A stretch of 40,582 nt of DNA from positions 487,316 through 527,897 of the forward strand of contig ML992511.1 in NCBI GenBank assembly GCA_010093995.1. The letters run 5' to 3'. The notes under the pieces are model-generated. The model was not told the DNA's origin, ran no database searches, and saw only the letters and a list, made by a program, of their open reading frames with translations. Position 1 is the first letter of the stretch. Each line of letters begins with the position of its first letter. The stretch comes from Elsinoe ampelina (Eukaryota). Both the position numbers and the translations under genes were made by a program. Below, piece after piece: positions 1-38,824 of this stretch.

Positions 1-431
1 TCTACGCTAGTAGTCTAAGCTAAGCTAAGAACGAGGTAGTTCTACTTCTATAGTAGTATAGCACTAAGGTAAGAGTTAGAGAAGGTATATCTTATAGATA
101 ATAAAGTACAATTAGATAGTATTATAAAGGCTAGCCTTAGTAATACTAGTGTTCGCTATCTAGACGAGGTTAACTATAGTACTTATATAAGGTAAGGACT
201 ATTCCTATATATATGTATTTTTTACTATATACTCTATATACTCTATAGCGAGAGTCGGAGGCAACATAAAGTACATGTCTACTAGTAACCTACACGCTCT
301 ATAGTCTCTAGAGTAGAGCTACTAGAGAAGATAGAGAATCGAGTAAACGTCGGGCTAGGTTACGTAATAACCTTAGTAGTTTAATTAGTCCTAACGTCTC
401 TATGCTTTAGCTGTCCTACTAGTTCGTAACA
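1..431 (-). repeat. 3' LTR of A1 (partial)
   Basis: Colinear with 6553-6983 and ends TAGTTCGTAACA. Adjacent 432-446 reads AAAAGAGAAGAGTAA on the minus strand (PPT). Confidence 0.95.
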
Positions 432-505
432 TTACTCTTCTCTTTTAATTAAGTTATCCTAATAAGTAAGTATCCTTTCTTATTCTTCTACGCTATATAC
501 TAAAT

Positions 506-1054
506 ATGTCTCCTAGTTATTAAAGGTATAGTAAATCTAGCATATCTACACGAAAGAATCTCTTAGAGTTTATTAAATTATTTAGAGCTAACATGCTATA
601 AGCTTACTCTTATTATAAGTCGAAAGAGCTAGACTATAAAGTCTATATTTAGTTAGGTATTTATAGCTAGTATGTTACAAGTAACTACTTAGGTTATAAT
701 ATTTAAGTAACAAAATTAGAATAGTAGCGTTTCTAGTCTAAGTATATTTATTTACGAAAGGAATTAGTTATAGCTAAGACTACTAGAAGAGAAGCTAAAG
801 AAGCTTATAAAAAGGCAAAAGAGGCTTATTAAAGAGCTATAGGTAATAAGCTTTGCCTATATAAAGAGATATAAAAGTTAGAGGACAAGGTAGAGAAAGT
901 AATCTCTCTAGAGAAGACCTATATTTAAGTCTTAGAGTAGAAAGAAATACTATTATTAGTAGATCCTGTCCTACTATAGGACTAGTAATTATTTATGCCT
1001 AACTCTAATTAGAGTTCCTTATTTAGTAACAATTAGGGTGCTTCTATTAGCTAA
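506..1054 (+). pseudogene. Antisense accessory ORF of A1: putative Zn2Cys6-like cluster plus coiled coil (RIPed; 3' end approximate)
   Basis: ATG at 506. In-frame stops are TAA/TAG, compatible with RIP. Tyr codons at 605-697 are spaced x2-x6-x8-x2-x7. A charged helical run follows (LRKELVIAKTTRREAKEAYKKAKEA). The same frame is present in A2. Confidence 0.6.
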
Positions 1055-4000
1055 GTAGTCTTCCTTAGGCATTCTCGTTTTTATTTAGTATTAGTAGCGT
1101 TAGGCCTACCTAGTTAGTTTACTTAGAATAGGTTTTTAGTCTAGTAATCTAGAATTACTTACGAGGTAAGGTATTTCTCTAGTTCCTATATTACCTTACT
1201 ATACTAATGTCCTTTCTAGTAGATAAGATAGTAACGCTTTCCCCTTATAGATTTATAACGTAAAACCCTTTTAATCTTATACTATAGCTTCTATGTTTCT
1301 TTATCTAGTTCGATAGGTCCGGGTATAGTATTCTATAGTACTTTCTCTAGTAGTAATATATAAAAGACTAGATAGATCCTTATATATCTTAGTAGTTCTA
1401 GTTTATATACGTTCTTGTTTTTCTTTTCTAGGATCTTAAAGAGTCCTAGTTTAGTATAGTTAAGTTTCTTACTTAGTTGTTTCGTTTTAATATTTTTACT
1501 AAGGAGGTAAACTTTCTCTCTCTCCTATAGAATTAGTCCTATAATTCTCTTCTAGTTAGTAAACTCTACTATTCTTTATAATATAAATACTATATTGTAG
1601 TATAGCTAGTTATATAGTTTCTTAATGTTAGCTACTAGTATATTAGTATCCTTAGATATTAGCTTAATTCCGAGTGTGTTATAGTATAGATCTAGGTATA
1701 TTCTATAGTTTATGTAAAATAGTAAAATTCTATTAGCTAACTTTCTATTATTAATAGCAAGCTCTACGAGTAGTAATAGTATTACCTATAAGTCTTGCTT
1801 ATAGTTTAGGTAGTAGTATAGGTACTACTCTAGTACTTAATTTGCCTATTTAGTTTGTCTATCTATTTATAGATAAAAGGAAGTTAATAGCTTATATTTA
1901 ACTCCTAGTAGGTCTATAAATAATTACTAGAATTATAATATAAATAGCTTATCTCTATTAGTTATTAGGTCTTATAGTACTCTATGTTATAAAACAATTA
2001 TTCGGAGGAAGATAAAGACTATATCCTTAGTAGTTACTATTGTCTTATATAGTATAAAGTAGTAATACTTCGTAAACCTATCTACTAGGACTAGAATACT
2101 ATTATACTTTACACCTATAAGAGGTTCTTCCGATAGTAGTAGAGGTTCTATAAAGTCTATCGTGACTAATTACTATAGTTTGTCCGGTAGTAGTAAGGGT
2201 TATAATAGCTTATATAGCTTATGTTATAAGTGCTTAGACTTATAGCATATATTGTATATAGCAATATATATCTTAATATTGTTTTAGAGTCCTTTCTATA
2301 GGTAGTTTTATATAATAAGTTTAATAGTCTTATTGATCCTACTATACCTCGCTATTAGGTTATTATAGTATATTTAAATAACTTCTTTCTTCTGTTCTTA
2401 TATAAGCTCCTAGGTAAGGCTATATAACTGCTCTACCTTTAGGTGCTTATAGACTAGAGCGCTATCTTACTACTTTAGTATAGAGGCCTCTATTATTGTT
2501 ATATTCTTTAAGTAATTTAGTTGTTAGCTAAGAGCATCTACTCTACTATTCTCTAATTCCTTAATATAGTAGATCTAAAAGTTATAGCTTATAAGTGTTT
2601 CTAACTATTAAACCTATTATCTATTAAGAACCTTAGTTATTGTCTAATATAATAGGTTCTTATAGTTAGTGTAGACTTATATAGGTAAGGTTATTTCTTC
2701 TAGGTATACTCTCCACTTACGGAATACTTCTATAATTATAAGTAACTCCTTATTATATATATTATAGTTAAGTTTAGGTCTGGTTATTTTTCGTAAGTAG
2801 TATATAATTAGGCAGTGTTATTCTTCTATGTCCTTCTATACTAGATATACTTCTATCGCAAAGTCCGAGGTATTCGTTTCTAGTAGTGCTTATTAGTCTA
2901 GGTTAAAGAGTACTAGGATAGGTGCTATTATAAGTCTAAGCTTTAGCTCCTTAAAGGCCTACCTACACTTTTTGTTAAAGACAAAGCTAGTTTCTTTCTT
3001 CGTAAGGTTAGATATTAGCGTAGCTACCTTAGAGAATCCTTTAATAAACTTATAATAGTAGTTAAAGAATTCTAGTAGTACTTAAACCTCCTTAACTATA
3101 GTAGGTTCTAGCTAGTTATTTACTAACTTAATCTTCTTCGGATCGGGTCTAATACTATTAGTAGATATAACATAGCTTAGAAATTATATCTTATATTTAT
3201 AAAACTTATACTTAGAGAGCTTTACTAGTAGGTCTTTTTCTTTTAGTTTCTATAGTACCTTATAAATATGTCTTATATATTTATTATATAACTTTAAGAA
3301 GATAATAATATTATCTAAATACACTAAGATAAAGTTATTAAGGTATTCTTATAGAGTATTATTAATTAACTCTTAGAAGGTTATAGGAGTATTAGCTAAC
3401 CTAAAGGGTATAACGAGGTACTTATATAGACTTTATTATGTCCTAAAAGCTGTTTTCTACTCTTTGCTCTCCTTTATTTATACTTAATAATAGGCGTCCC
3501 TAATATTAATTATAGTAAACTATTTAGCTCTAAGTAGTTAGTCTTAAAGTTTGTTAATCCTTAGTAAGGGATAGCAATTCTTCCTAGTAAGTGTATTAAG
3601 TTTCTAGTAATTAATATATATTTATAACGTCTTATTCTTTTTAGGTATAAAAAGCACTTCGTGCGTAATAGGTAATTTTAATAGTTATATAAATCCTTTA
3701 AGTAGGTACTTATCGATATAGTCCTTAAAGACATTCTTCTCTTATTTTAATAGTAGTATAAGACCTTAATAGTGTATTAGAGATTTACTCTCTTTAAAGA
3801 GTATTTTGTAATTCTATAGTTTATATTAGAGTAAGGCTATAATATCTTCTCTTTCTTTAAACAAATCTTTAAAGTCTTTATATTTCGGTAGAAGTACTTA
3901 ATTACTTACGCTAGCGATAGCTCTAACTATTAGTCGTACCTATACTGTCCTTATAGTTAGTATCTATAGAGCTAATTATACTCCCTACGTCCTATAATTA

Positions 4001-6529: not shown

Positions 6530-6983
6530 TGTTACGAACTATCTAAATATAGCCTACGCTAGTAGTCTAAGCTAAGCTAAGAACAAGGTAGTTCTACTTC
6601 TATAGTAGTATAGCACTAAGGTAAGAGTCAAAGAAGATATATCTTATAGATAATAAAGTACAATTAGATAGTATTATAAAGGCTAGCCTTAGTAATACTA
6701 GTGTTCGCTATCTAGATAAGGTTAACTATAGTACTTATATAAGGTAAAGACTATTCCTATATATATATATTCTTTACTATGTGCTCTATATACTCTATAG
6801 CGAGAGTCGGGGGCAACATAGAGTACACATCTACTAGTAACCTACGCGCTCTATAGTCTCTAGAGTAGAGCCGCTAGAGAAGATAGAGAATCGAGTAAAC
6901 GTCGGGCTAGGTCACGTAATAACCTTAGCAGTTTAATTAGTTCTAACGTCTCTATGCTCTAGCTGTCCTACTAGTTCGTAATA
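6530..6983 (-). repeat. 5' LTR of A1 (454 bp)
   Basis: TGTTACGAACTA...TAGTTCGTAATA termini; direct repeat of 1-431. Confidence 0.95.
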
Positions 6984-7679
6984 GGCAGCTTATACTACTA
7001 AGTCTAGTAAGAAGAATAATATGTTAAGAGTAGCTAAGTAGATATATAGTTCTAGCGGAATTCTTAAGAAGCTTAAGCATAAGATCTATATAGCTAGCGC
7101 TACTAAGCTTACTATTAATAAAGGTACTAACGAGAATACTAAGAAGAAGTACTTAAAGTTTGTCTAGAAACTTAGTAAGGAGAGTAGGCTTACTACTATC
7201 TCTAATCCTAACTAGTAGTAAGTTCTCTATTATTATTACGTATTATTATTACGTTAGTATACTAATAAATAGCAGAGCTTACAATTCTACACCTCCGGCT
7301 AAGTATTAACTACTCGAGCTAATCTATCTTATAGATAAAGGTAAATATATAAAGCCTAACAACAATAACAAGTGTAAAGAAGTATACGAGCTAGACTACG
7401 ACTCTAAGATCGAGAAACTAGCTAATAAGTACGAGATAGACAAGTAGTATATAAAGTTTAAGGGGTTTTCCTCTAATAAGGATAAGATTATTAATAAGGG
7501 AGAGAGAGTTAAAGCGGAGAGTTCTTTAGAGAGTAAAGATAAGGAGAAGAATAATAATAAGAATAATAATAAGAATAATAATAAGAATAATAATAAGAAT
7601 AATAATAAGAATAATAATAAGGAAGGGAATAAGGAAATAGTCGATGCTAAGGAAGATAAATTTACTAGCTTTAACTAGT
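6984..7679 (+). pseudogene. 3' part of a RIPed spliced ORF of unknown function ending in a long, probably acidic, tail
   Basis: Lys/Glu-rich frame with an intron-like GTAAGT...CTAAT...TAG at ~7218-7273. The C-terminus reads KDKEK(NNNK)nEGNKEIVDAKEDKFTSFN*, compatible with a G>A-mutated D/E tract. Confidence 0.5.
7548..7621 (+). repeat. Tandem repeat (AAGAATAATAAT)x6
   Basis: Directly visible 12-bp unit, in frame with the ORF above. Confidence 0.95.
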
Positions 7680-8135
7680 GGATTTTCTATACTATAATTA
7701 ACTACTAAGTAGTTTAATCTATAGTATAGTCCGGCCCTTTTATAGATTTAAGTTTTATAATAAGATCTTTTCCTATATAGCTACTATTGTTATTTGTGCT
7801 TCTAATTGTTACCTCTAACAATAGTAAATTATCTATATTATTACTTCTAACAATAGATTTCTATTACTATTGTTGCTATAAACAATAGAAGGTACTAGAT
7901 ATATACGCTATCTCGTTTCTGTTTATTCTTCTTTCTAAAACCTCTCTTTCTTATTATTATAGCTTCTCGTATATAACTCTATCCCGACCTAGAAGATCTA
8001 ATCCTCTACTAGCCTCGTACTATAACTTATAGTAACTACGCTAGGCTACTATACTTACGTTAGTATAAAGCTTGTATCTACTATATAACTAAGTAATTTA
8101 TTAATAGCGAGGAAAGATAGACTACTCGTATCTAT

Positions 8136-8338
8136 TGATTATAACTAGTAAGATAAGAGGTTAATTACGTCTATTTATTAAGATATTAAGACTTAGAAGA
8201 AGAAGAAGAAAAGCTAGTATATAAAGCACGCGTAATATTGAGAGCGAAGTAGCTAGAAGCCTAAGCTACGATACTAAGATTACGTAACTAATCTAAACTA
8301 GATCTTAACTAAATCTAGTTCGTATCTATCTCGTATTA
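8136..8338 (-). repeat. 3' LTR of B1
   Basis: Direct repeat of 14198-14400; TGAT...(ATCA>ATTA) termini; adjacent PPT. Confidence 0.95.
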
Positions 8339-8349
8339 CTACTTTCTCT

Positions 8350-11300
8350 CTTAAGCGCGTTTGCCCTTAAACGCTATTATATATTATTTATTAATCTATT
8401 TCGGCCTTAGCTTATCTATATAAGAGTCTAGATAGTCGCGTAGCATATCGGCTACTCCTTTAAGGTTGTTAATTAGCTACTAGGTAAGATCCTCTAGATA
8501 GCTCTTCTAGCTTATATAAGCAACTAGCTTCCCTTATAGTATATGTATGTTAATTACATTGTCTACCTTATACTCTTCCTTACTATCGATCTTTACTAGA
8601 GGTAGTTCCTTAAAGGCTTAGCCTAGTAGGGGGTTATTTAGGTGCTTAGTAAGGAGGTCGGCGTAGAACATAGGGTAAATCCTTTAGAGAGTAGCTAGTA
8701 GATTAAGCTTGTATATTAATAGTAACTGTTTTTCGAGAATCTTATAAGAACTAATATACTTCGGTAGTAGCTTTAGATTACCCTATAGCCGAAGGTTTTT
8801 CGTTAATAACTACACTAAATCGCTAGCTTTAAACTCTATTAGCTAGCGGTGTTTATTAGCTTACTCTACTATTCGTAACTAAGTAATAGCAAGGTTAGCT
8901 TTAGTAATAGTAAGGGCTTCTTCTAGTTGTTTAGTAAGCGCGCGAATTTCGGCCTTATTAAGCTTAGCTCTTATTAATAGTAAGTTAGTAGGGGGCTAGA
9001 AGCTTATTCTTAGCTTATATCCTCTAGTTACCTCGAATAGCAATAGCTTAGTACTTTCCGAGGGGTTAGCGTTTATAGAGAACTCTATAACTAGTAGGAC
9101 AAGGGTCTAATTACTAAACTGTGTTATATAGGATTAGATAACTTATTTAAACTTTTAGTTTATAACTTCTAATTAGCCGTCTATTTAAGAGTAGCTAGTA
9201 GTAGATAGCTTAGCTATAATCTTTAGGATCTAGTAGAGCCTCTTCTATACGTCGCTAACGAACTAAGGGCTATAGTTAGAGGTAATACTATCTAGTAGGC
9301 TATGTAGTTTCTACACGTAGAAGAATAATAGCTTAGCTATTTCGAAAGTAGAGGTTTCTTCTTCTCCCTAGAAGTAAGGGATTAAGTGTCGCTCCTTAGA
9401 TAAGCAATCGATAATATATAGTACTACGTTATAGCTATCTACTAGGGGTAGGCTAGTAACGAAGTCTATAGTAATATATTGCTAAGGCCTTACTAGAATA
9501 GGCAATAGTAATAGAAGGCTAGCTAGCAAGCCGTAGCGAGCCTTTAAGCGCTTATAGTTATAATAGTTAGCTATAAACCTCTTAACGAAGTTGTTATAGC
9601 TTAGGATATAAAAGGTAGTCTTAATTATAGTAGCCGTTTTAGTAGCTTCTCTATGTGTATAGTCCTTCGATATATAGACTTCTTAGATAACCTTTACAGC
9701 TATTAACTACGGCACGAATAGTTAGCCGGCAATCTATAATATCCCTTTATTAATAGTAACATTGCTCGACGGCAGCTATTTCCTCTTTAGGAAGGCCTCT
9801 ATTATATAGTAGATGCCTCTAACTGTTTTGCACTTAGCGTCTTATAAGTTAGCTTTAGCTACTTCTTCGAAAAGGGGTAAAGGTTCTTTCGTAGCTAAGA
9901 TAGGTACTACGTAGATACCTAGTTTAGTAGCCGAAATAGGCGCTAATACAGGTAGCGAAATAGGAGGCAAAATCGGTAGCGAACTAGATAGCGAACTAGT
10001 TCGCGAACTAGATGCTAAACTAGATCTTAGTTCGGCTTAGATTAGTAATCTAGTTCGGATACGACCTAGATTTAGTTCGTTAATAATGCGCTAATCTAGC
10101 ACCTTATATAGTAGTAGCGTCTAGCGTAGATTAGAGTCTTCTCTCGAATGTAGTATATCTCTATTTCTCCTTATAAGTGCATCGGCCTTGCTATTAGTAG
10201 CGCTAGGCCTATATATAATCTTAAAGTTAAACTACGTAAGGTAGAGGGCCTAGCGTACTTAGCGGCGTAATAGCTTCTAAGTCTTTATAAAGTGCATTAA
10301 GGATTAGTAGTCGGTAAGGACATAGATAGCCTTATCGGATTAAGTGCTTATAAGCTTAAGAGCCTATTCCTCGAAGGCTTAGACAATTACTAGTAGTTCC
10401 TCGTCGTAGATAGCGTAGTTACGTTCGGCTTTATTTATAGATTTACTAAAAAAGGTAATAGGCCGGAGAATATTAGACTTATCGTATTATAATAGAATTC
10501 TAGCGGTAGTAGTGTCGGAGGCGTTAGTCTTAAGGACTATCTACTTTAAGCGATCGAAATACATAAGGATAGGTACACTTATAACAGTGTACTTTATATA
10601 GTTAAATACGGTAGTGCACTTGTTATTCTATAGTGTAGTATCCTTCTTAAGGAGATTATTTAGTAGCTTAGCGATAGTACTAAATCCCTTAATAAAGCGG
10701 CAATAGTAGCTATAGAAACTAATAAAGCTTCTTACCTAAGTAGTGTTACTAGGAGCTAGCTATTTCTAGGCTTATATAGCTTCTATCTTCTTTAGATCTA
10801 TTTTAACTCTATCTCGGCTAACAATAATACTAAGATACTTTACCTCTGTTAGGTAGAACTTACTCTTCTTAATATTAGCGTTTAGGCCTAATTCGTAGAG
10901 CCTCTAGAGCACTAGCTTAATATACTTAGTATGCTCTTAGCGGGAGCCGTTTATATAGATAAGAATATTATCTAGGTAGATCGACACGAAGCGCTCTAGT
11001 ATATTGACAAAGTTGTAATTTATAAACCTCTACTAGACTATAGAGGCATTAGTAAGGCTAAACGGCATTACTAGCTACTTAAAGTTACCTATGCATATAG
11101 AGAATATAGTAAGATCTTTACTATTAACAGAGTTATAGAGGCAGTAGAAGGCTTAATAGATGTCGATCTTACTAAACTATTTAGCCTTACTTACGCGCGT
11201 AAGTATTTCTTCGATAAGGGGTAGAGGATAGATATCTTACTTAGTTACCTCGTTAAGGCTATAGTAGTTAACGTAGAGATAGAGTTCTCTACCTAGCTTA

Positions 11301-12500
11301 TAAACAAAGAGAATAAGTAAGGAATAGCTAGCGGAACTTAGTGTAATAAAGCCTTTATTAAGATGTTCTTAGATAAATTATTCTACTATGTCGAGTTCTT
11401 CTAGTAATAGGCGGCGTAAAGGCTCTATATATAGTAGCTTAGCGCTATCTTTAAGTGTAATATAGTTGTCGAAATCCGGCCGATGCTAAGGAAGCGTATT
11501 AGATTATTCTTTAGAGAAGATATTAGTAAACTCCTATAACTCCTCTAGGAGAACTACTATAGGATCTAGTTCTAGCTCGGAGGCTATCTAGTAGTAGTTT
11601 TTAATATTCTTTACCAAGATTATAAACACCTCGTTCTTTTAGTATTTAGCTACTAATATAAAGGCAGCTACGCCGATAAAGGCGATAGTTAGCTCTACTT
11701 GTTTAGCGTCACTTACGTAGGCAGGTACGTAGAAGAACTTATATATTAACTAAGTGCTATAGGAGATTAGCTTAAACTCTCTCTAATTTAGCTTAAAGTT
11801 TGACCTAAGAGCTAGCGGCTAATATAGTCTAGTTTGTCCTAACTTAGTAGCTAAGCTAGAATCTAGTTAGCGAGCTAAACTAGAACTAAACTAGTTCTAA
11901 ACTAAAATAGGGATTTTGCCGAGCTAGATTCCTAGATCTAAGCTAGGCTTAGATCTAGATCCTAGCCTTTTAATTAGCTATAGTAGCTCCTACTTAACAA
12001 CGACTAGTAAAAACTCTTCTTTGTATATAACTTAGCTATGCTTATAGTCGATAGTAGCTCTATTAGCCTTAAGCTAACTAAGGCCGAGAATAATATCGAA
12101 ACAGCTAATATCTATAATACGGAAAGTAGTAAGAGCGTTTAGCTTACTAGAGATAGTAGTAGTAAGGGGGACACTATATATAACTTGTTCTATTAGAACG
12201 CTATTATAAGCTTAAAGCTAAATAGAGCTAGCTAACGCTACGGGGCAGCCGAAGCTCTTTAGCTTATTAAGGACGTTATAATTAACTACGGCGCTAATAA
12301 GCGCACTAGTGTCGATGAAGGCTTAGAGCGTAATAGTGTAAGAGCGGTTATAAGAGTCGTAAATAGTAATAGGAGTTATAATAGCAGGGATATAGTAGCT
12401 AATAACGCTATTTATTGAACGTATACCTCCTCTAGATCTATCTCGAATTGCCCTTATTCCGCTAGAGGATAGAACTTGTCCTCTAGCTACTTATTTCTCT
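8350..12500 (-). pseudogene. pol of B1 (PR-RT-RH-IN-chromodomain; ends approximate)
   Basis: FIDTS (DTG) protease motif near 12320, IYLDN (YLDD) near 10970-10985, KTNASDTTTARIL RNase H motif near 10500-10535. Matches B2. Confidence 0.9.
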
Positions 12501-13860
12501 AGCTAGAGAAACTAGTAGGTTCGTAGTCCGTTTCGGGGTTAAACTAAGGCTAAACTAGATCTAGTTCGTAAGCCGAACTAGTGTCGACTTAGTTACTTAA
12601 CTCGGCTAAGCGATTCTAGAGCTACTATATTTCTTCTATAGTACTAATGCGTACGGGGCGTATAGTAGCGTAGGTAGCCTTCTCTAAGGCGCTAGCTATA
12701 TACTTAGTAGAGATATAGCTAGGCTTACTACATGCGTAATAGGTAAGTGTCTAAGTTAGATAGAAAGGCTATAGAGCGCCTCTAGTAATAGGGCGGAAGG
12801 TAGCTAGAGTAGTAGGTATAGAAGTAGAATAAGGCACGCGAATTAGTGCCGTAGCGGCGCAGCTTATAGCTAGGCTAGAGCGTAAGGCTTAAGTACGCTT
12901 AGTAATAGGGTTATTCTATTAAATATTATAGTCGGTAGCGCGGGCCTTAGTAATAAAGGCAGTAAGGTTATTAGTGTCGTAGTTAACTAGAGTATTATAT
13001 AGCTTGTTAGATATCTTCTAATAGATCTAGTATAGCTACTCCTCTTTAGCAATCTTAGCGTAAAGAGTATACTTATTAAACTTGCTAATAAAGGAGTTAA
13101 ATATACTATTACACTAGAAGAGGTTAGCGAACTAAGTACGTATAGTAGCCCTATAGTTAGGATCCTTAAAGCGCTAGGCTAGGAGAGTAAGGACCTCTTC
13201 GACGCTAATAACGTTATTACTAGCTAAGTCTATAATAAGGGTATAGGCTTCTCTAGAGAGACGTAAGTATAGATAGGTAAACTAGGTGTCTCTTGTAGGG
13301 AAACGATCTACGTTAGTACGTATCTTATTCCTTATCTAGTGCTTAAAGACCTTAAACTGCTCCGGTGTACCTATGCTAAAGACGGCAGGGTCTAGTATCT
13401 TTTCTAATAAGGTAAGGTAGCGTATAGAAAGAGCTAGTATACTACGCCCTATCTCGTTTCTTAGTTAGTCTACCTTAGCCTTAAGCTCTTAGATTTTATC
13501 TAGGTAGCGAGTAGCTTAGGTAGTAACGCCGTCGGTATAGGACTAAGATATGTCTAGTTCGGATTAGAGGTTACTAAGCTAGGCCTAAGTAGTATCTAAC
13601 TTATAGTAATAGTAGAGAGCGTCGGTATAAGTGCCTTTTACCTACGTAGTCTACTTATTATAGAAGGACTTAATATAGTTAAATACGTCTCTTAGTGCCT
13701 ATATACTATACTCTTTCTATAGCTTCTTAAGGAGTATAGCGTTAGAGAGGGCAAAAAGATTATAGTAGAGAGAGCAGATAGAGGCGTTATTATTGTTAGA
13801 GATAGGTTAAGGTAGCTTACTTTAGTAGCGCTCTTCGTCGCCGTAGTTAGATCGAGCTAT
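12487..13860 (-). pseudogene. gag of B1 (RIPed)
   Basis: ATA (ATG) at 13860 is in frame with TAG at 12487. A zinc-knuckle remnant (C-x2-C-x4-H-x4-C with Tyr substitutions) lies near 12700-12745. Confidence 0.75.
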
Positions 13861-14183
13861 ACTTAGCGTAGTTAGTTATAAATAGAATAGTATAAAAAGT
13901 TAATACGTAACAAAGGAGATATTAAAATTTTTAGCTAGTAGCCTACTTCCTTTAAGAGTTGTCTATAACTCGACTTATTACCTTCTTCTTGTATCTTTAG
14001 GGTTTATAGTATTAACCTACATAGTAGTAGTAAGGATCTATTATAGTGTACGCGGGAACTATAGTTGTAATAGCTTCTTCTTTAATTCTTTAATTCTTTA
14101 TAAGTAGTAGTTATTAGTAGTTATATAAGTAGTAGAATAACTAGATAGTTTAATAGCTCTATTACTTAGTCGCGGTCGTTTCG

Positions 14184-14195
14184 AAGTCTCGATAT
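14184..14195 (-). promoter_or_regulatory. Putative self-priming primer-binding site of B1
   Basis: AAGTCTCGATAT lies 2 nt inside the 5' LTR boundary and is an 11/12 inverted repeat of ATATTGAGACTT (14245-14256) within the LTR. Confidence 0.65.
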
Positions 14196-14197
14196 AG

Positions 14198-14400
14198 TAA
14201 TTACAACTAGTAAGACAAGAGGTTAATTGTGTCTATTTATTAAAATATTGAGACTTAGAAGAAGAAGAAGAAAAGCTAGTATATAAAGCATATATAATAT
14301 TGAGAGCGGAGCGGCCGGAAGCCCGGGCTACAATGCCGAGATTATATAACTAATCTAAACTAGATCCTAACTAAATCTAGTTCGTATCTATCTCGTATTA
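14198..14400 (-). repeat. 5' LTR of B1
   Basis: Direct repeat of 8136-8338; retains more G/C than its partner. Confidence 0.95.
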
Positions 14401-15069: not shown

Positions 15070-15532
15070 TATTACGAACTAGTAGAATAGCTAGAGCGTA
15101 GAGACGTCGAGACTAATTAAACTACTAAGGTTATTACGTAACCTAGCCCGACATTTACCTAGTTCTCTATCTTCTCTAGCAGCTCTACCCTTAAAACTAT
15201 AGAGCGTATAGGTTACTAGTAGACGTGTACTCTATGTTGCCTCTAACTCTCGCTATAGAGTATATAAAGTATATAGAGTATATAGTAAAGAATATATATA
15301 TATAGGAATAGTCCTTACCTTATATAAGTACTATAGTTAACCTCGTCTAGATAGCGAATACTAGTATTACTAAGGCTAGCTTTTATAATACTATCTAATT
15401 GTACTTTATTATTTATAAGATATACCTTCTCCAACTCTTACCTTAGTGCTATACTACTATAGAAGTAGAACTACCTCGTTCTTAGCTTAGCTTAGACTAC
15501 TAGCGTAGACTATATTTAGACAGTTCGTAACA
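15070..15532 (+). repeat. 5' LTR of A2
   Basis: T(G>A)TTACGAACTA...CAGTTCGTAACA termini; direct repeat of 21629-22091. Confidence 0.95.
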
Positions 15533-15648
15533 TTTTAACTACCCTTACTATAGTATAGCACGCTACAAGGTTAATAAGTAACTCTCGCTCTAAGTTACTA
15601 TTAGTATCTTCGATCGCTAGTAAGCTAGAAAAGCTTACTATTAATAAT

Positions 15649-18600
15649 ATGTCTACTACTAGTTTAACCTCGAGCGAATATAGAAGGTCTCTTAGTATAG
15701 AGGAAGAATAGAGTAAGCCTAAGTTAGAGGTAGAACTCTTCTATAGGGACTATACCTACTTAAGACACTTTCTTATTTAACTTAAAGCCTTCTTTGCCCT
15801 AGAGAGAGATAAGTACGCTAACGACATAGCAAAGGTCCTCTATGCCGGGATACACCTAAAAGGCGCTACCTTTAGGTAGTTTAAGCCCTATATAAGTAGC
15901 TACCTAGACGGATAACTAAGCCTAGATATAAAGGCTATCTTTAAGAGCTTTAATATCTTTTAGACAAAGATTAAACAAGTCTTTAACATATCTAATAAGG
16001 AGCGCGTCGCTATAATAAAGATCTAATAACTATAACAACGTAGGTCTATAGCCTAGTACTATTTCTAGTTTTAATAACTTATAATACACCTAGACTAGAA
16101 TAATAGTGCTAAACATTTAGTATTCTACTAAGGACTAAGCGACTTAGTCAAAGACTAAATAATACCTAAGCCGCCTAATAGCCTCTAAGAACTAGTAGAT
16201 ACTATAATTACTATTAATAACTAACTTTATAAACGATATATAGAACGTTACGGAGGATATAAGGCAAACACTAGATATATACATTCCTCCCGAAACTATA
16301 GAGACCCTATAGAACTTAATACTATACGCAAGGGCTGCCCCTTATAGGTATAAGGCCGCGGCTATAGAGGAAAGTTCCTTAGTAGAAAAGAGAGAGAGAA
16401 GTATAGACGAGACAATCTATATTTTAAGTATAAAAGACCTAGGTATTAGGCTAGGGACTACTAATAAGGGGCGCTAGCCGATAGATTATATATAATAGTT
16501 ACTAGGCTAGTAGAAAAAAAGGCTAACACTACTATAGAAGACCTAACAACCTTTAGCGTAGGCAAAGAAACATAGAAGGAGTCTATAACAACTTAAGAGA
16601 TAGAAGAATTCTCTCCGGATGTTACGCTTAATATCTCTATAACTAATAGCGAACAATAAAGCTAATACGTAATACTATTATAGATAGTATATTATAATAA
16701 CTCTTGTTATATTTACTTATTAGACAAGTAGGGATCTAGTTAGTTTCTATATAAGCTATCTAAGCGTAGGCAACTAACGAAACAGCTAGACTAGAAACCT
16801 AACCTAGAAGGGCTTTCTATAATTAGTAGTAACACTAACTAACCTTAGAAGGTAGTTAGCGACAATTACTAATATACAATTATTAAGACGAAGTATTAGG
16901 ACATAAGCGCTATATAATAATATAGTAGTCTTACCTTTAGCTCTTATAGTAAACTACAAGGAAAAGTATATTATATATCGCTCTAGAAATGTATAAATCT
17001 AAATTACGAATAGTACTATACTGCCTACTTATACGATATACTCGGAGAAGAGGCTATTAGTCTTAAATATACTATAGACTTCTCGGTAATTAAAATAGAT
17101 AGTACTATTCCCTATAGCTAAGTATAAGAATATACTTAGTGTAGCCTTACTAACTATAACTATACTAGGGGCAGTAGTAACAAAGAGGAATATAACGAAG
17201 AATATACTAAAAGACTATAATATAACAACGTAGATAAAGACTTATTCGATAATAACAACAATAATGTACTACTACCGGGTAGACGACTTAAGGTATATCT
17301 TATAGAGATATAGAGAAACTATATAATAATATATACCTACTACTAGAATAGAACACGATAAGATAAATCTATCTAACTTATATTTATATTTAATATAAAC
17401 ACCTAGCTACACCTAGAGGGAATAGTTATACTAATACGGGTATATACTACTACTTAGTATAACTAGTAGAGAATTATTGGACTTTATAGCCACTAAGGGA
17501 CTTAGGCGCTAGAAGTTTACCTTACTATGTTAAATAGCGACAAAACATAACTTGCCTAGTAGATATAGTACTAACAATAGATACGTGTAGGAAGGGATTA
17601 ACTACTTATCTAAGGCGCTATAATAACAAAAAACTAGCTAGTTATTACCTAAGGAGGTAAGACAATAACACTAGCTAAAGCCTTAATATAATAAAGATCT
17701 ATATATTAAATTACTTTATACTAGAAGTCTAGGTATAAGGAAATAAGGTAAGAGCAATAATAGATTTAGGAGCTAACTATAGCTACGTCTCTATAACAAT
17801 TGCTAATTAGCTTAAACCTTATTAATATTAGAAGGAGGTTACCTTACCTACTTACTATAGCGGATAGAACCCCTATAGGGAAGAATAGGAAAGTTACTTA
17901 GGAACTATAGAACGTTATAATTAAAATTAAAACATATATAGAAAAACGATTAATCGATATAGTAGATATATAGTATAACATAGTACTTAGCATAGACTAG
18001 CTTTAATAACATAATCTAGACGTAGACTAGATTAAAGAAACACTTAAATTTCCTAAGTGTAATTATAAGATATAGAGAGTATAATTAGCTCCGCAGATAC
18101 TAACTATAAGGATAGTATAGGTATAACTAATAGTTAGGGCTATTACTAGCGTAAGTAACTAAGTACTTCCGCTAGAATATAAAGACTTTAAGGATTTATT
18201 TAAAGAAAGAGAAGGTATTATAGCCTTACTCTAACATAAACTATAGAATTACAAAATACCTTTCGAAGAAGGTAAATCCCTAATATACTATTAAGGTCTT
18301 ATACTACTATTAAAACAAGAGAAGAATGTCCTTAAGAACTATATCGATAAGTACTTACTTAAAGGATTTATACAACTATTAAAATTACCTATTATATATA
18401 GAGTGCTTTTTATACTAAAAAAGGATAGGACGTTATAAATATATATTAATTACTAGAAACTTAATACACTTACTAGGAAGAATTACTATCCTCTACTAAG
18501 AATTAACAAACTTTAAGACTAACTTCTTAGAGCTAAATAGTTTACCGTAATTAACATTAGGGACGCCTATTATTAAGTATAAATAAAGGAGGGTAAGGAG

Positions 18601-21017
18601 TAGAAAACAGCTTTTAGAACATAATAGAGTCTATATAAGTACCTCGTTATACTCTTTAGGTTAACTAATACTCCCGTAACCTTCTAAGAGTTAATTAATA
18701 ATACTCTACGAGAATACCTTAATAACTTTATCTTAGTATATTTAGATAATATTATTATCTTCTTAAAGATGTATAACAAACACGTAGGACATGTTTATAA
18801 AGTACTATAGAAACTAAAAGAGAAAGACCTACTAGTAAAACTCTCTAAGTGTAAGTTCTATAAGTATAAGATACAATTTCTAGACTATGTTATATCTACT
18901 AATAGCATTAGACCCGATCTAAAGAAGATTAAGCTAGTAAACGACTAGCTAGAACCTATAATAGTTAAGGAGGTTTAAGCGCTACTAGGGTTCTTTAACT
19001 ACTACTATAAGTTTATTAAGAGGTTCTCTAAAGTAGCTACGCTAATATCTAACCTTACGAAAAAGGAAACTAGCTTTATCTTTAACAAGGGATATAGGTA
19101 GGCCTTTAAGGAGCTAAAGCTTAGACTTATAATAGTACCTATCCTAGTACTCTTTAACCTAGACTAATAAGTACTACTAGAAATAGATGCCTCGGACTTT
19201 GTAATAGAAGTGTATCTAGTATAGAAGAACGTAGAAGAATAACACTACTTAATTATATACTACTTACAAAAAATGACTAGACCTAAACTTAACTATAATA
19301 TATATAATAAGGAGTTACTTATAATTATAAAAGCATTCCGCAAGTAGAAAGTATATCTAGAAGAAATAACCTTACCTATATAAGTCTATACCGACTATAA
19401 GAACCTATTATATTAGACAATAACTAAGGTTCTTAATAGATAACAGGTTTAATAGTTAGAAACACTTATAAGCTACAACTTTTAGATCTACTATATTAAG
19501 GAATTAGAGAATAGTAGAGTAGACGCTCTTAGCTAACAACTAGACTACTTAAAGAATATAACAATAATAGAGGCCTCTATACTAAAGTAGCAAGATAGCG
19601 CTTTAGTCTATAAGTACTTAAAGGTAAAGTAGTTATATAGCCTTACCTAGGAGCTTACGCAAGAATAGAAGAAAGAAGTTATTTAAATATACTATAATAA
19701 CCTAACGGCGGGATATAGTAGGATTAATAAGACTATTAAACTTATTATATAAAACTACCTATAGAAAGGACTCTAAAACGATGTTAAGACATACGTTACT
19801 ATATACGATATATGCTATAAGTCTAAGCACTTATAACATAAGCTATATAGCCTACTATAACTCTTACTACTACTAGACAAACTATAGCAATTAGTTACGA
19901 TAGACTTTATAGGACCTCTACTACTATTAGAAGAACCTCTTACAGGTGTAAAGTATAATAGCATTCTAGTTCTAGTAAATAGGTTTATAAAATATTACTA
20001 CTTTATACTATATAAGATAATAGCAACTACCGAGGATATAGCCTTTATCTTCCTTTAAATAATTGTTTTATAACATAGAGTACTAAGAGACTTAATAACT
20101 AATAGAGATAAGCTATTTATATTATAATTCTAGCAATTATTTATAGATCTACTAGGAGTTAAATATAAGCTATTAACCTCCTTTTATCTATAAATAGATA
20201 GACAAACTAAATAGGCAAATTAAGTACTAGAGTAGTACCTATAATGCTACCTAAACTACAAGTAAGACTTATAGGCGACACTATTACTACTCGCGGAGCT
20301 TGCTATTAATAATAGAAAATTAGTAAATGAAATTTTACTATTTTACGTAAACTATAGAATACACCTAGATCTATACTATAATACACTCGGAATTAAGCTA
20401 GTATTAGAGAATGCTAATATACTAGTAGCTAACATTAAGAAACTATATAACTAGCTATACTACAATATAGTATTTATATTATAAAGAATAGTAGAATTTA
20501 CTAACTAGAAGAGAATTATAAGACTAATTCTATAGGAGAGAGAGAAAGTTTACCTCCTTAGTAGAAACATTAAAACAAAATAACTAAGTAAGAAACTTAA
20601 CTACACTAAACTAGGACTCTTTAAGATTCTAGAAAAGAAAAATAAGAACGTATACAAACTAGAACTACTAAGATATATAAGGATCTATCTAGTCTTTTAT
20701 ATATTACTACTAGAGAAAGCACTATAGAACGCTATACCTAGACCTATCGAACTAGATAAAGAAACATAGGAGCTATAGTACAAGATCGAAAGGGTTTTAC
20801 GTTATAAATCTATAAGGAGAAAGCGTTACTATCTTATCTACTAGAAAGGACATTAGTATAGTAAGGTAATATAGGAACTAGAGGAATACTTTACCTCGTA
20901 AGTAATCCTAGATTACTAGATTAAGAACCTATCCTAAGTAAACTAACTAGACGGACCTAGTACTCCTAATACTAAATAAAAACGAGAATGCCTAAGGAAG
21001 ATTACTTAGCTAATAGA
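15649..21017 (+). pseudogene. gag-pol of A2 (gag, Zn knuckle, long spacer, PR, RT, RH, IN, chromodomain; end approximate)
   Basis: ATG at 15649. Protease IDLGA (DSGA) ~17760. RT LVYLDNIII (YLDD) 18739-18750. RNase H EIDASDF ~19180. Chromodomain YKIERVLRYK..KRYYLIY*KGH..SKVI*ELEEYL ~20778-20890. Confidence 0.92.
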
Positions 21018-21554
21018 AGCACCTTAATCGTTACTAAATAGAGAACCCTAGTTAGAGTTAGGCATAAATAATTACTAGTTCTATAGTAGGATAGGATCTA
21101 CTAATAATAGTATTTCCTCCTACTCTAGGACTTAAATATAAGTCTCCTCTAAAGAGATTACTTTCTCTACCTTGTCCTCTAACTTTTATATCTCTTCGCG
21201 TAGGTAAAGCTTATTACCTATAGCTCTTTAATAAGCCTCTTTTGCCTTTTTATAAGCTTCTTTAGCTCTCCTTCTAGTAGTCTTAGCTATAACTAATTCC
21301 TTTCGTAAATAAATATACTTAGACTAGAAACGCTACTATTCTAATTTTGTTACTTAAATATTATAACCTAAGTAGTTACTTACGACATACTAGCTATAGA
21401 TACCTAACTAAACATAGACCTTATAGTCTAGCCTCTTCGATTTGTAACAAGAATAAGCCTATAGTATATTAGTTCTAAATAGCTCTATAAACTCTAAGAG
21501 ATTCTTTCGTATAGATATGCTAGATTTACTATGTCTTTAACAACTAGGAGACAT
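21006..21554 (-). pseudogene. Antisense accessory ORF of A2 (Zn2Cys6-like plus coiled coil; RIPed; 3' end approximate)
   Basis: Homologue of 506-1054 with an intact ATG at 21554 and the same Tyr spacing at 21455-21363. Confidence 0.6.
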
Positions 21555-21628
21555 ATTTAGTATATAGCGCATAAAGACAAGAAAGAATACTTACTCGTTA
21601 GAACAACTCGATTAAAGGAGGAGAGTAA

Positions 21629-22091
21629 TATTATAAACTAGTAGGACAGCTAGAGCATAGAGACGTTAGGACTAATTAAACTACTAAGGTTATTACGTAA
21701 CCTGGCTTGACATTTACCCGGTTTTCTATCTTCTCTAGTAGCTCTACCTCTAAAACTATAGAGCGCGTAGGTTACTAGTAGATATGTACTTTATATTGCT
21801 CCCGACTCTTACTATAGAGTATATAAAGCACATAGAGTATATAGTAAAGAACACATATATATAGGAATAGTTCTTACCTTATATAAGTACTATAGTCGAC
21901 CTTGTCTAGATAGCGAACACTAGTATTACTAAGGCTAGCCTTTATAATACTATCTAATTGTACTTTATTATCTATAAGACATACCTTCTTTAACTCTTAC
22001 CTTAGTGCTATACTACTATAGAAGTAGAACTACCTCGTTCTTAGCTTAGGTTAGACTACTAGTATAGACTATGTTTAGATAGTTCGTAATA
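21629..22091 (+). repeat. 3' LTR of A2
   Basis: Follows the PPT; ends TAGTTCGTAATA followed by the TSD. Confidence 0.95.
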
Positions 22092-22096
22092 ATACT

Positions 22097-24620
22097 ATAT
22101 ATTTCTCTCTAGCTATTCTAGTAGAATTACGTAGCTTTATAATCTCTGCTTAGAATATTAGACGCGATAGTAGAATACGACAATTATAACTCCTTAAATG
22201 CCTGCCTTTTTAACCTAGTAAGAGATCTAAGAATTAACCTCTATAATAAGCCTAGAAAGACTAGTAGGGTTAAACAATTATAGTATCTATATATAGAGAG
22301 GGCACGAAAAATACACTAAATTAGAATTCTAAAGCACATTCTAGAGGTCTATAGGCAAATGTTATAGAAGCTACTAAGATTTATAATAGAGAACTATAAG
22401 TTATTTATAATAGGTGTAGTAATATACTTACTTATTCTACTTACTATCGCACTAGTAATAAAGCAATAGAGAGACATCTTAAGTCCTAGAAATACACTAT
22501 AGTTGTTAAGTACTACTACGAGTAAAGCCCTGCCTAAAAAGCTCTTAAGTAATTATAATAGCATATAAAGAGCATTTACTAAATTGTCTCTCTATTCTCT
22601 ACTAATACCTTCTACTATAAGCTTGTTTATATAGTTACTAACTATAACTAGTCTTTCCGTATAGTTAAGTGTCCTACCTTTAGCTAATTCCTCTACTTCC
22701 TTCGACCTAATATTACTATACCTAGCCGGACTCTTTTTTAAGTAATACTAGTAGCATAATTCGAGAAGTTATAAAAATTACTACTCTCTAACCTCGGTAA
22801 GAACACTAAGCTTTTAATAGCGTTAGATAGATAGTCTACTAATAACTACTTAGAGTTTATTATAATTAAAGGCTATTTTATTAATAACTAATAGTAATTA
22901 TAAGAGCGGCTCTTAGAAATAATACTTCTTTAAGGTCGCTATACTAGTAAAGCTATAGTAAACAAGGTAATATAGGTACTAAAAGATATATCGGTTAAGT
23001 AATAACTACTTATAGTTATAGTAGATAATATATTAAATAATAGAATACTCCGAGAGTCTCTTAAAAGAAGCCTAGGTACACTAGATATTAAGTAGAATAT
23101 AAAGGAGAATATAATTCTATGCCTAGTATATATTATTAATCTTGTTATATAGGACATTATTAAGCATCTAAAACTTAAGACAAGCGAAGAGATTAACATA
23201 GTAGAGAAGTTATAAAACTGCTATATCTAGGATATTACAATATTAGTCTCTATCTCGAATTTACTACGGAAGGTATATAACATTTATTACATTATTTTAT
23301 TACGTTCTAATATTAGTAAGCTCTACGTAATATGTATTATAATTAATAGTTCCCTATAATAGTTTAAACAATTTATAGACCTCTAGAAGCATCTACTACT
23401 TAAGAAGAGGTACTAAGTTATATATAATATTAAGATACGCTAGAATTTAATATATAATATATATAAGCGAGCATTAAAGCTTAAACCTTTTATTAAGAAT
23501 TAGCTCGAGGATAAGACTATACTCTAAGTACCGAGAACTTCTTCTAAGATATTAATATCTAAACTGCTCTCTAACATTAATAACTATAACTTTACTAAGT
23601 TATTACTTAATCTAAATAAGTAGTAGTATCTTAAATCTATTATAGTAATACTAGAGAACTTTAAGAAAGTAATAACATAGCTAATTACTAGTAGCTAACC
23701 TCTTCTCTAGTATATATAGACGATGTATAATACACTCTTTAACTTCTTAGATAAAATCGAAGAGGGCCTAATTAGCACTAAGAATTATAACAATCTACTT
23801 ATATAGCTAGCTACTATATAAAAGGTAGTAGTAAAGGGACAAGAGAAGCTTAAGAAATACTATATATAAACTAAGGATAGAAAGGGTATACTCTATAACT
23901 ATGTAACAATTCTTAACCCCTCTAAGAAGCTTATAGTATATAATATAAGGGCCTATAGTCTTTCTAGTAAGTAGTAGCTAATAACACTTAGAATATAGAG
24001 ACTTAGAAACCTTACTATAAAGACGACTATTATAAGGAGTTCTTATAGTACCTTCGTCGGTATAATAAGATAGACCTCTTAATTGCTTTACTAGCCTCTA
24101 CCCCTAAGCTATTATATCACTAGCAACGAGACTAGTTTAACTAACCGAAACGAAAGGAGTAAGGTTATGCCCTATTACTATAAAGCGATAGTCTATACTT
24201 CTTATTTATTCTCTCGAAGCGTACTATAGTTAAAGAAGGTAAGGACTACCTTATAACACTACCGGTCTATATTTAGAAACTTAATGTCTTATAGTAGTAG
24301 AAAGAGAAGGAAGAAGAATATCTATTACTATTACATATAGTAAAAGATATTCTAGTAATCCTAATTATAGGGGTTAGAGTCGAGTAAGTGTTTAATATTA
24401 TAAAGAATATTATTAGTGCGCGGAGGCATAAATTAGTAGCCTAAACTATTTAGTAGCTTATAATATTAAAGTATAAGCTTAAAGTAGCCTCGCTATTAGG
24501 ACGGATTAATATAGAACTAGAGATAGAGGATAAGGCTACTAATACTAACAATTTACTTAAATTATTATTAAGGACTAATGTAAATTAACTAGACAATATT
24601 ACTATAGTACTAAGCTATAG
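22097..24620 (+). pseudogene. hAT transposase (RIPed; N-terminus probably starts ~15016, left of A2; end approximate)
   Basis: De-RIPed motifs: IALDGWS..NHL.F..IKGYFID ~22815; GRHTG ~22935; VT.DN..NN ~23015; IPCLAH.INLV.QD ~23113; TRWNS ~23435; C-terminal dimerisation domain L.WWK....EYP.L..MA.DIL.IP..GVGVERVF ~24285-24395. Confidence 0.9.
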
Positions 24621-25015: not shown

Positions 25016-26445
25016 TATCTACCTAAAAACTACTCTATAGTAGAGACAAGAGTAGAGCGCTATAGAACATATAAGATAATCTTCTCTTCTATAAAGAGTT
25101 ACTAGTTATTCCGAATAATAGCGTACTTAAGGCATAGGTGCTACGTATATACTATAATAGTAAATAGGCTAGTTACTTTAGTAAGAATAAGATACTTAAA
25201 CTTCTCTTACGGAAGTACTTCTAGATAACTATAAGGAAAGACATTAATAACTACGTATAGTTATACTAAGTATGCTAGAAATATAAGGCATACTACTATT
25301 ACCTCTATAGCGAGCTACGTGTACTACCAATACTAGACTACCTATAGTAAGAAATTATAATAGATTTTATTACTAACCTACTACTAAGTAAGTAAGGTAG
25401 TAGCGTCTATAATATAGTACTAGTAATTATAGACTATTATACTAAGATATTACTATATGTCCCTACTACTAAGAAGTATATATCTATAGAGCTAGTAGAG
25501 ATCCTATATAACTACGTTATTCGCTATTATAGTGTCCTAAGGGGAATAGTAAGCAATTAAGGATCGGTCTTTACTAGCTAGTTCTAGAGTAAATTCTATT
25601 ATAAAACGCATATAAAGCGTAGGCTTAGTATAGCCTTTTACCTGTAGATAGATAGCTAAACTAAGTAGTAAAACTAGATATTAGAATAGTACCTAAGGTA
25701 CTACTATATAGAGCTATAGAACGACTAGGCTAAATGTCTATTATAAGCGGAATTTATAAGTAATAATAGCGTTTATACTACGCTACGTATAAGCCTCTTC
25801 TAAATAATATATAGCTACTATCTAGAGTTAGAAGTAATAGCTATTAAGTCTCGAGACAAGACTTTAGAGAGAAGAGTACTAGTAGTAGTAGAGTTAGCGT
25901 AACACTTATAAGATACATATATAAAGCTAGTAGAGTAATAGAAAGAGACTTCCGCCTACTAGGCTAAGTACTATAATAGGAAGCATATACTAAGGGTATA
26001 TAGCATAGGTAACTTAGTACTACTCTTAGCTAAGAACTTATAGCTACCTATACTAAAGAAGAAGATAGAACTACAATTCCTTAGCCTATTCTATATACTT
26101 AATATAATTAAATCGTAGGCGTATTACCTAGCTTTACTAAGTTAGTATTGTATCTATAATGTCTTTTATATATCTCTTCTTAAACTATAGACAAGTAGAG
26201 CTAGTAAGGAGCTAGAAGAGAGTATACCTCTTACTAACGAAGTAGATAAGTAGATAGTAGAGAAGATTCTAGGCAGAAGAACTACGAAGGGTAAGGTATT
26301 CTACTTAGTAAAGTAGAAGAACTAGCCTATTAAGTTTAATAGCTAGAAACCTAAAGAGAATTATATAAATATAGGAGAGCTAATTACTATATATAAGTTA
26401 TAGCTAAGAGTAGCTAAGAAAGGTCGCCGAAGGTGTAGATTATAG
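25016..26445 (+). pseudogene. pol remnant of C (integrase HHCC, core, chromodomain; end approximate)
   Basis: De-RIPed HHD..AGHFG..KT.ELL.RKYFW ~25130-25225; MDFITDLP ~25360; STAFHPQTDGQTE ~25630; W.VEKIL.RR..KGKVFYLVKWK.W...FNSWEP ~26250-26355. Confidence 0.9.
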
Positions 26446-38400: not shown

Positions 38401-38824
38401 TGTCAAGGTCGTCCTCGCCGCCTGCACATGGCAACGCCCTCACTTGATCGTTCTCGACGAGCCCACCAACTTCTTGGACCGTGACTCGCTCGGCGCCCTC
38501 TCCAAGGGCCTCAAGGAGTTCCAAGGAGGTGTCATCATCATCACCCACAACTCCGAGTTCACCGCCGGTCTCACCGAGGAAGTCTGGGCCGTCATGAACG
38601 GTCGCATGACTCCTTCCGGCCACAACTGGGTACAGGGTCAAGGTGCGGGTCCCCGTCTCACTGAGAAGGACGACGAGGAAGACAAGTTCGATGCCATGGG
38701 CAACAAGATCGAGGGTACCAAGAAGAAGGCAAAGCTTACTTCTTCCGAGCTCCGGAAGAAGAAGAAGGACCGTATGGCCCGCCGCAAGAGGGGTGAGGAG
38801 GTCTTCTCTGATGAGGACGACTAG
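35446..38824 (+). CDS. YEF3: Fungal translation elongation factor 3 (eEF3, ABC-F ATPase), 1071 aa; exons 35446-35648, 35701-36255, 36309-37290, 37349-38824
   Basis: HEAT region ([14 protein letters not shown]), two ABC cassettes ([25 protein letters not shown] and [22 protein letters not shown]), chromodomain insert in ABC2, basic C-terminal tail. Three GT-AG introns (52, 53, 58 nt) give a 3216-nt uninterrupted frame. Confidence 0.97.

Follow-up and report, generated by a model that had tools for sequence, protein, structure and literature searches.

Retrotransposons of the Boty-like group (BcGypsy1) in Botrytis cinerea and Sclerotinia reportedly carry an additional gene, brtn, which, with its product BRTN, is said to have been described by Zhao et al. 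in Virology (417:248) in 2011. In the accessible portions of other papers, Boty-like elements of Botrytis and Sclerotinia have brtn as an extra gene in antisense orientation, located after pol and before the 3′ LTR; its function is given as unknown, and it is said to be often missed by genome annotations (PMC7264820, PMC8365987, PMC4227169). A portion of a further paper mentions a transcript of Monilinia with matches to a truncated Pol as well as to BRTN (PMC5987419), and in none of these portions is a zinc cluster or a coiled coil mentioned for brtn (PMC7264820, PMC8365987, PMC4227169, PMC5987419). In plants, the elements Grande1, RIRE2, Retand and PvRetro13 have antisense ORFs between pol and the 3′ LTR, which, according to the accessible part of one of these sources, are conserved within their families and are of unknown function (PMC7264820). 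The fungal gene that we treat here has the same position and orientation as these plant ORFs, which belong to Tat-lineage elements and are likened to it by description only. An antisense-strand gene is also found in a vertebrate retrovirus: in HTLV-1, transcription from the 3′ LTR and splicing give rise to the mRNA of HBZ, a small coiled-coil transcription factor of the bZIP type. Though unrelated in sequence, HBZ offers the nearest parallel to the way in which the fungal gene might act.

How does a decayed locus of Elsinoe ampelina compare with these systems? Like brtn, as far as the partial descriptions of the latter allow the two to be likened, the gene family found there is antisense, lies between pol and the 3′ LTR, and is carried by ascomycete Ty3/Gypsy elements with a chromodomain. 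An antisense extra ORF beside the 3′ LTR is thus of a known kind, while the breadth of the family, the architecture of its proteins and the evidence for splicing appear to be new. Our literature search, which did not extend to the full text of the 2011 description of brtn, found no paper that links an antisense gene of a retrotransposon to a zinc cluster.

Gypsy family A and its surroundings

The window, by which we mean the whole analysed stretch of 40,582 nucleotides (positions 487,316 to 527,897 of contig ML992511.1, assembly GCA_010093995.1), has a GC content of 26-39% in bases 1-35000 and of 53-57% from about 35000 onward. Its AT-rich part (1-35000) is a patchwork of degraded LTR retrotransposons, in which Gypsy family A is present in two copies, A1 on the minus strand and A2 on the plus strand. 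Alignment of the LTRs and direct repeats delimit A1 from the window edge to 6983 (minus strand). Its 3′ LTR, at 1..431 (minus strand) according to an alignment of all four LTRs and a direct repeat (2-301 / 6554-6853), has lost its outer ~21 nt beyond the window edge, and its inner end at 431 reads ...GTTCGTAACA; its 5′ LTR lies at 6530..6983 (minus strand; LTR alignment and direct repeat). A plus-strand polypyrimidine run adjoining the 3′ LTR is read from the sequence as the polypurine tract of A1 (432..446, minus strand). The other copy, A2, is whole (15070-22091, plus strand), with a 5-bp duplication on either side whose minus-strand reading is AGTAT; its 5′ LTR at 15070..15532 is placed by the four-LTR alignment and its 3′ LTR at 21629..22091 by LTR alignment and direct repeat (both plus strand).

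When stops are read as X, Pfam recognizes in A1 relics of reverse transcriptase (RVT_1, 3169-3648, E 2.7e-13), of RNase H (RT_RNaseH_2, 2593-2976, E 1.1e-17) and of the C-terminal SH3 domain of integrase (SH3_Tf2-1, 1339..1518, E 1.6e-6 with 28.6 bits, just below the cut-off of 30), all in one frame of the minus strand, and no domain on the plus strand of A1. The end of pol (1141..1281, minus strand) looks chromodomain-like by eye only, when its translation is set against the pol end of a metagenome locus, L015, described below; Pfam gave no Chromo match on this mutated stretch. From the pol domains on the minus strand together with the chromodomain-like stretch, family A can be taken as a Ty3/Gypsy chromovirus. 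Since reverse transcriptase, RNase H and SH3 lie on the minus strand of A1, an ORF at 506-1054 on the plus strand is antisense to them and located between the end of pol and the 3′ LTR, where it occupies the roughly 600 nt from the pol end to the polypurine tract.

Other DNA in the window may be mentioned here. A second RIP-mutated Gypsy chromovirus, family B, is present in two copies (8130-14400, minus strand, and 28042-33308) with reverse transcriptase, RNase H and SH3_Tf2-1, and its pol runs almost directly into its 3′ LTR. Between 22100 and 28040 (plus strand) lies more degraded mobile DNA in which, with stops read as X, all Pfam matches are weak: a relic of a hAT dimerisation domain at about 24277-24474 (plus strand, E 3.6e-4) and a third Gypsy fragment at about 25123-26394 (plus strand) with weak matches to Integrase_H2C2, SH3_Tf2-1 and Chromo. 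Just past the sharp boundary between AT-rich and GC-rich DNA near 35000 begins an intact-looking gene for translation elongation factor 3 (35870-38824, plus strand), with EF3 HEAT repeats, the four-helix bundle and two ABC domains.

Intact relatives of a decayed antisense ORF

The ORF of A1 (506..1054, plus strand) has a homologue in A2 (21006..21554, minus strand). Both translations quoted in the sequence-only reading of this DNA, each with an intact ATG, are reproduced exactly from 506-1054 and 21554-21006, and its estimate that the ATG lies about 75 bp inside the 3′ LTR boundary is precise: the distance is 75 nt in A1 and also in A2 (21629 to 21554), as judged by the LTR alignment. The A1 ORF has 17 in-frame stops ahead of its final one. 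Tyr is found at residues 34, 37, 44, 53, 56 and 64, that is, with spacings of x2, x6, x8, x2 and x7, and at these six codons each copy has TAT or TAC and never TGY, just as that reading had remarked when it took them as former ligand positions devoid of Cys codons. Residue 36 of A2, which is not a ligand position, is still a Cys codon.

A phmmer search with the ORF, X standing at its stops, against 1.84 billion representative proteins returned four matches of 188-211 aa, the best of which is a 199-aa protein (E 2.1e-11, query residues 10-151). At the positions of the six Tyr of the window all four have Cys, and residues flanking the cluster are common to the window and the relatives: FG..M..C..C......CKVHVRSG.C..C.......C.[VI]R[VI]T..EW.RL, followed by a long charged helix. 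An alignment of 16 members was built from these four proteins and 12 of the 25 loci found in a metagenome scan described below; the six Cys are invariant in 16 of 16. When its profile was run against the six-frame translation of the window, it matched only 527-1018 (plus strand, E 1.9e-18, spanning profile positions 9-171 of 193) and 21536-21045 (minus strand, E 4.8e-19), the next match having an E of 1.2. Thus, in A1 the relic of the six-Cys cluster can be placed at 605..697 (plus strand), with TAY codons at 605, 614, 635, 662, 671 and 695 where the relatives have Cys, and in A2 at 21363-21455, while a relic of the long coiled-coil helix is assigned in A1 to 713..967 (plus strand) by alignment to residues 75-159 of relative P0001 and by the AlphaFold2 model and dimer prediction considered in the next section. 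The proposal that the ORF is a former gene whose ancestor had Cys at the six positions is therefore borne out by all 16 intact relatives. Even the ancestor that had been reconstructed by reversing RIP changes was essentially right, its CKVHV.SG.C..C core agreeing with CKVHVRSGxCxxC of the family; with natural intact relatives at hand, such a de-RIP reconstruction becomes unnecessary.

Architecture of the intact proteins

The intact relatives are proteins of about 185-210 aa, in which a conserved N-terminal helix, the Cys6 cluster, a helix of 85 residues and an acidic tail with a conserved TW..DG..D.FW motif follow one another. The invariant cluster is C-x2-C-x6-C-x8-C-x2-C-x6-8-C, and its spacing falls within the range of Zn2Cys6 domains (C-x2-C-x6-C-x5-12-C-x2-C-x6-8-C) in 16 of 16. 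AlphaFold2, run with a 16-row alignment, gave a model of mean pLDDT 78.7, which consists of a helix at residues 17-31, two short helices (40-45 and 59-64), each beginning at a CxxC pair, and a long helix (75-159, pLDDT 91-98), followed by a disordered acidic tail. When this model was compared by Foldseek with 350,542 PDB chains, 28 matches were obtained at E up to 10, the best with E 0.32. Ranks 1-14 are DNA-binding domains of Leu3, Gal4, Put3, Pho7, Hap1 and Ppr1 and one chain of the CBF3 complex, so that named Zn2Cys6 DNA-binding domains account for 13 of the first 14 places; ranks 17, 18 and 20 are LAC9, AlcR and Ppr1. The CBF3 complex contains the Zn2Cys6 protein Cep3. A model of the domain only (pLDDT 69.1) had nine Foldseek matches, all nine to Zn2Cys6 domains, with E of 1.3-5.9, which are individually weak. 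LAC9 superposes on the model at 1.8 Å over 33 of 33 residues, and a sequence profile search of the PDB gave LAC9 (E 0.56) and LEU3 (E 0.85) as its only Cys-rich matches. In the ESM Atlas, the best match with the Cys domain (score 0.85) led to unnamed clusters of ascomycetes with no Pfam family, which may be taken as a lead only.

Sequence families give a less uniform picture. PF00172, which the sequence-only reading had proposed to search, did not yield a recognized GAL4-type domain: its Pfam cut-off of 21 bits was reached by 0 of 16 relatives (printed bit scores are 9.7 and 12.1), seven of the 16 matched only at E up to 10, with a best of 0.063, and the window frames, read with X at stops, gave no match at E up to 0.01. 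The lowest E among families matching over the Cys domain is that of DUF3716 (PF12511), obtained in four of 16 members at E up to 10 with a best of 9.7e-4, although its score on P0002 (17.2 bits) is again below the cut-off (22). In GAL4-type clusters a Pro typically precedes the fourth Cys, and the second Cys is followed by a characteristic pattern of Lys. In the relatives both features seem to be missing or displaced: by eye, K or R is present two residues past the second Cys in 12 of 16 members, and no conserved Pro precedes the fourth Cys, where the 16-member alignment has RSGxC. Membership in the GAL4 family, as had been suggested for the ORF, is thus not borne out: the spacing is there and the fold is suggestive, but the Pfam cut-off is missed and the fold matches are individually weak. 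We would call the domain Zn2Cys6-like, a term which the spacing and modelled fold suggest without establishing membership of the family, and we lean slightly towards the view that the cluster folds as a Zn2Cys6 binuclear zinc cluster does.

The same reading had placed a dimerisation helix after the cluster. The relatives have the long helix at 75-159, and a homodimer predicted from two copies of residues 20-165 with zinc, without an alignment, scored 0.50 against 0.01 for the best control. Of 30 solved homodimers, 21 came up to that mark, and of 23 single chains none did; at least 94% of contacts recur between runs, with pLDDT of 81. That the protein is a homodimer is accordingly the side on which this modelling comes down, by a little. 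In the modelled dimer, however, residue 123 contacts 88 and 109 contacts 109, which points to antiparallel pairing and would put the two clusters at opposite ends of the dimer. Pairing in GAL4 is not antiparallel, so that the helix and its predicted pairing are retained from the earlier claim while the likeness to the GAL4 dimer is not. More generally, the relatives have in common with GAL4-type factors (Gal4, Leu3, Lac9, Put3, Hap1, Ppr1, Pho7; PF00172) the same range of six-Cys spacing and, as modelled, a short helix for each CxxC pair and a pairing helix thereafter; they differ in that the helix is far longer (85 residues) and modelled as antiparallel, and in that the protein is only about 200 aa and borne by a retrotransposon.

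It may then be asked whether the gene is real and its six-Cys module nevertheless not of the GAL4 type, but a zinc module of another sort or one held by disulfides, perhaps akin to DUF3716. In that case the protein would work through contacts with other proteins or with RNA, its role being that of a chaperone for nucleic acids, a tether for integration or a suppressor of silencing instead of a transcription factor. The scores for PF00172 and DUF3716 and the antiparallel dimer all speak for such a module, and DUF3716 proteins, REP9-1 and REP9-2 of Zymoseptoria, are transposon-borne too, although REP9 is, in the accessible part of its description, a class II element (PMC8232023). Yet the only Cys-rich folds returned by Foldseek are Zn2Cys6 domains, no Cys-rich PDB sequence other than LAC9 and LEU3 is matched by the profile, the spacing is inside the GAL4 range in every one of the 16 members, and a small activator has this very arrangement of a cluster, a helix and an acidic tail. 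We regard such a non-GAL4 module as rather improbable, and continue with the Zn2Cys6-like protein as the preferred reading.

The gene as part of the element lineage

An alignment-based scan of metagenomes gave 25 loci. In 17 of them the ORF stands tail-to-tail with the chromodomain end of an intact Gypsy pol on the opposite strand directly downstream, with Chromo, SH3_Tf2-1, rve, Integrase_H2C2, RNase H and reverse transcriptase domains being visible according to the length of the contig, and the ORF overlaps the end of pol by 0 to about 180 nt. Seven of the other eight loci have less than 500 nt past the match, and the eighth, L024, is a partial copy with stops and no pol in the 3.5 kb downstream. 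In L015, an LTR at 239-631 ends in GTTCGTAACA, the same terminus as in the window LTR, and is followed by a polypyrimidine run (632-644), the ATG lying 89 nt inside; the intact ORF of this locus occupies 720-1289. A position between pol and the 3′ LTR of a Ty3/Gypsy chromovirus, antisense to gag-pol, is therefore found in the window and in 17 of 25 loci. A wider alignment-based protein search collected at least 108 clusters at E up to 1e-3, none of which has a precomputed Pfam domain; they are mostly unnamed or hypothetical, one being a Didymella pomorum entry. Some members of the family have received wrong automatic names (galactokinase, YdcH/DUF465, AcrA, chromosome segregation ATPase), which are probably artefacts of coiled-coil composition. 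In L001, L004, L006, L014 and L020, gag or gag plus protease is found beyond the LTR from the antisense ORF, and several of these contigs are 6-7 kb long; these are circular permutations of one element, which suggests tandem copies or assembly collapse across the LTR.

Might the ORF instead have come into family A by a single capture of a host gene fragment, or be a nested insertion, with no integral place in the element lineage? Such an origin might be thought of because family B in the window has no spacer, no such ORF and no match to the profile, and because L024 lacks a downstream pol. However, position and orientation are the same in the 17 independent loci, whose proteins are only 30-47% identical to P0001, the LTR terminus GTTCGTAACA is common to the window and L015, and among the fetched metagenome loci no free-standing host paralogue was seen, so that we give capture from the host very little credence. 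These loci contain no host Zn2Cys6 gene. An accessory gene of the lineage is what we prefer: the ORFs at 506-1054 (plus strand) and 21554-21006 (minus strand) are probably copies of a gene killed by RIP, which a lineage of ascomycete chromoviruses carries antisense between the chromodomain end and the 3′ LTR and whose intact relatives encode a protein with the Cys6 cluster and the long helix.

Decay by RIP

The mutated DNA has the features of RIP-mutated repeats, with TpA/ApT of 1.92-2.0 and (CpA+TpG)/(ApC+GpT) of 0.21-0.30, compared with 0.71 and 1.18 in the GC-rich flank, and with differences between the two copies dominated by transitions: 116 transitions and 5 transversions separate A1 from A2 in the first 1400 aligned bases. 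The comparison within the window rests on these two copies of family A from this genome. In 53 columns the family is at least 80% conserved; at 25 of them the window codon still specifies the same residue and at 22 it can be reached by C>T or G>A alone, which makes 47 of 53 compatible, whereas 2000 permutations of the ORF's own codons make 9.6 columns compatible on average and 18 at most. All six Cys columns have TAY in the window, one RIP-type G>A step from TGY. The changes seen are Cys TGY->TAY, His CAY->TAY, Arg CGA->TAA/TAG, Trp TGG->TAG, Gly GGA->AGA and Ala GCA->GTA, and one conserved Arg column has TAT in A1 while CGC is kept in A2. Both copies in the window are thus inactive relics: by C>T and G>A changes, Tyr codons now stand in place of all six Cys codons, and stops in place of codons for Arg, Gln and Trp. 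Outside this genome, the antisense gene lies in AT-rich DNA and is interrupted by in-frame stops at L022, L023 and L025 (GC 0.33-0.52), L021 and L024, so that RIP-like decay of the element lineage is seen in other fungi too.

It is to be noted that the GAL4-type spacing, on which the sequence-only reading had laid weight, is indeed present but as a bare pattern does not rise above chance. In six-frame translation, bases 1-35000 contain 12 instances of the pattern [CY]x2[CY]x6[CY]x5-12[CY]x2[CY]x6-8[CY], including two other homologous pairs of A1 and A2 and a simple repeat; Tyr makes up 8.9% and stops 11% of the six-frame residues there, and the stop density of the ORF is not below the six-frame average. 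The simple repeat, at about 7530-7613 (minus strand), translates as YSYYYSYYYS... and shows, by fitting the pattern, how easily it arises in this DNA. That the site was never a gene and owes its Tyr spacing to chance in Tyr-rich, RIP-mutated DNA is, in spite of these counts, refuted by the phmmer match, by profile matches at E of about 1e-18 and by codon compatibility far beyond the null, and its probability is negligible. It is homology, and not the Tyr spacing, that lifts the site above chance.

RNA from a relative

Bases 1-2000 of L015 are present in 22 metatranscriptome runs, four of which were aligned to the locus. Every contig in all four of these skips 62 nt, from 1311/1312 to 1372/1373 of L015. 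On the strand of the ORF the skipped sequence is GTATGT...CTGAC...TAG and starts 20 nt past the stop of the ORF, and on the other strand it overlies the last codons of pol. Among the metagenome loci themselves, L012 and L014 have the spliced form, and L013 and L015 have the unspliced one. By pattern match only, intron-like sequences are also seen 2-34 nt past the stop in L001, L006, L008, L010 and L011. The skipped piece of L015 has the form of a canonical fungal intron and is best explained by a spliced transcript of the antisense gene, the contigs themselves showing neither strand, level nor start, while a deletion variant of the DNA could in principle leave the same trace. A relic of such a 3′ intron was sought by eye downstream of the ORF in the window, and none was identified.

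Bases 1-238 of L015 are uncovered by the RNA contigs, which diverge from the locus at 239. We read this position as the outer border of the LTR, the contigs continuing into the leader of an element, which has no bearing on where an antisense transcript starts. Since the contigs cover both pol and the antisense gene, they may be likened to the transcript matching both Pol and BRTN in Monilinia, as that one appears from the accessible part of its description.

What the protein may do

In active elements, transcription of the gene would run against gag-pol; after splicing, its mRNA would yield a dimeric protein of ~200 aa, whose cluster, helix and acidic tail would resemble a minimal GAL4-type activator. 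Such a protein might bind DNA, most plausibly the LTR of its own element, and so tune the transcription or the targeting of the element; we put this forward as a possibility to which we would give somewhat less than even credence. Much the same reserve applies to the start of the antisense mRNA, which may lie in or beside the 3′ LTR, with transcription running from the outside inward; the sequence-only reading had likewise supposed that the 3′ LTR would serve as an antisense promoter. Taken together, these steps lead to a tentative proposal, as a whole more doubtful than its parts: that a lineage of ascomycete chromoviruses encodes a GAL4-like dimeric zinc-cluster factor of its own from a spliced antisense transcript starting at the 3′ LTR, that this factor binds the LTR or host promoters and thereby governs the time and place of the element's expression or insertion, that it is the fungal counterpart of HBZ, and that brtn is a member of the same, so far unrecognised family.

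Reading a dead gene

Here, a dead relic in one fungal genome has opened the way to a large family, which comprises at least 108 clusters, none with a Pfam domain and most of them unnamed or hypothetical. Regions rich in RIP mutations remain readable by homology once stops are masked. For annotation, the finding means that the antisense gene is missed or misnamed in public records. For antisense extra genes of retrotransposons, it offers a testable idea, namely that they may provide a DNA-binding factor supplied by the element itself, and natural intact sequences with which the idea can be pursued already exist.
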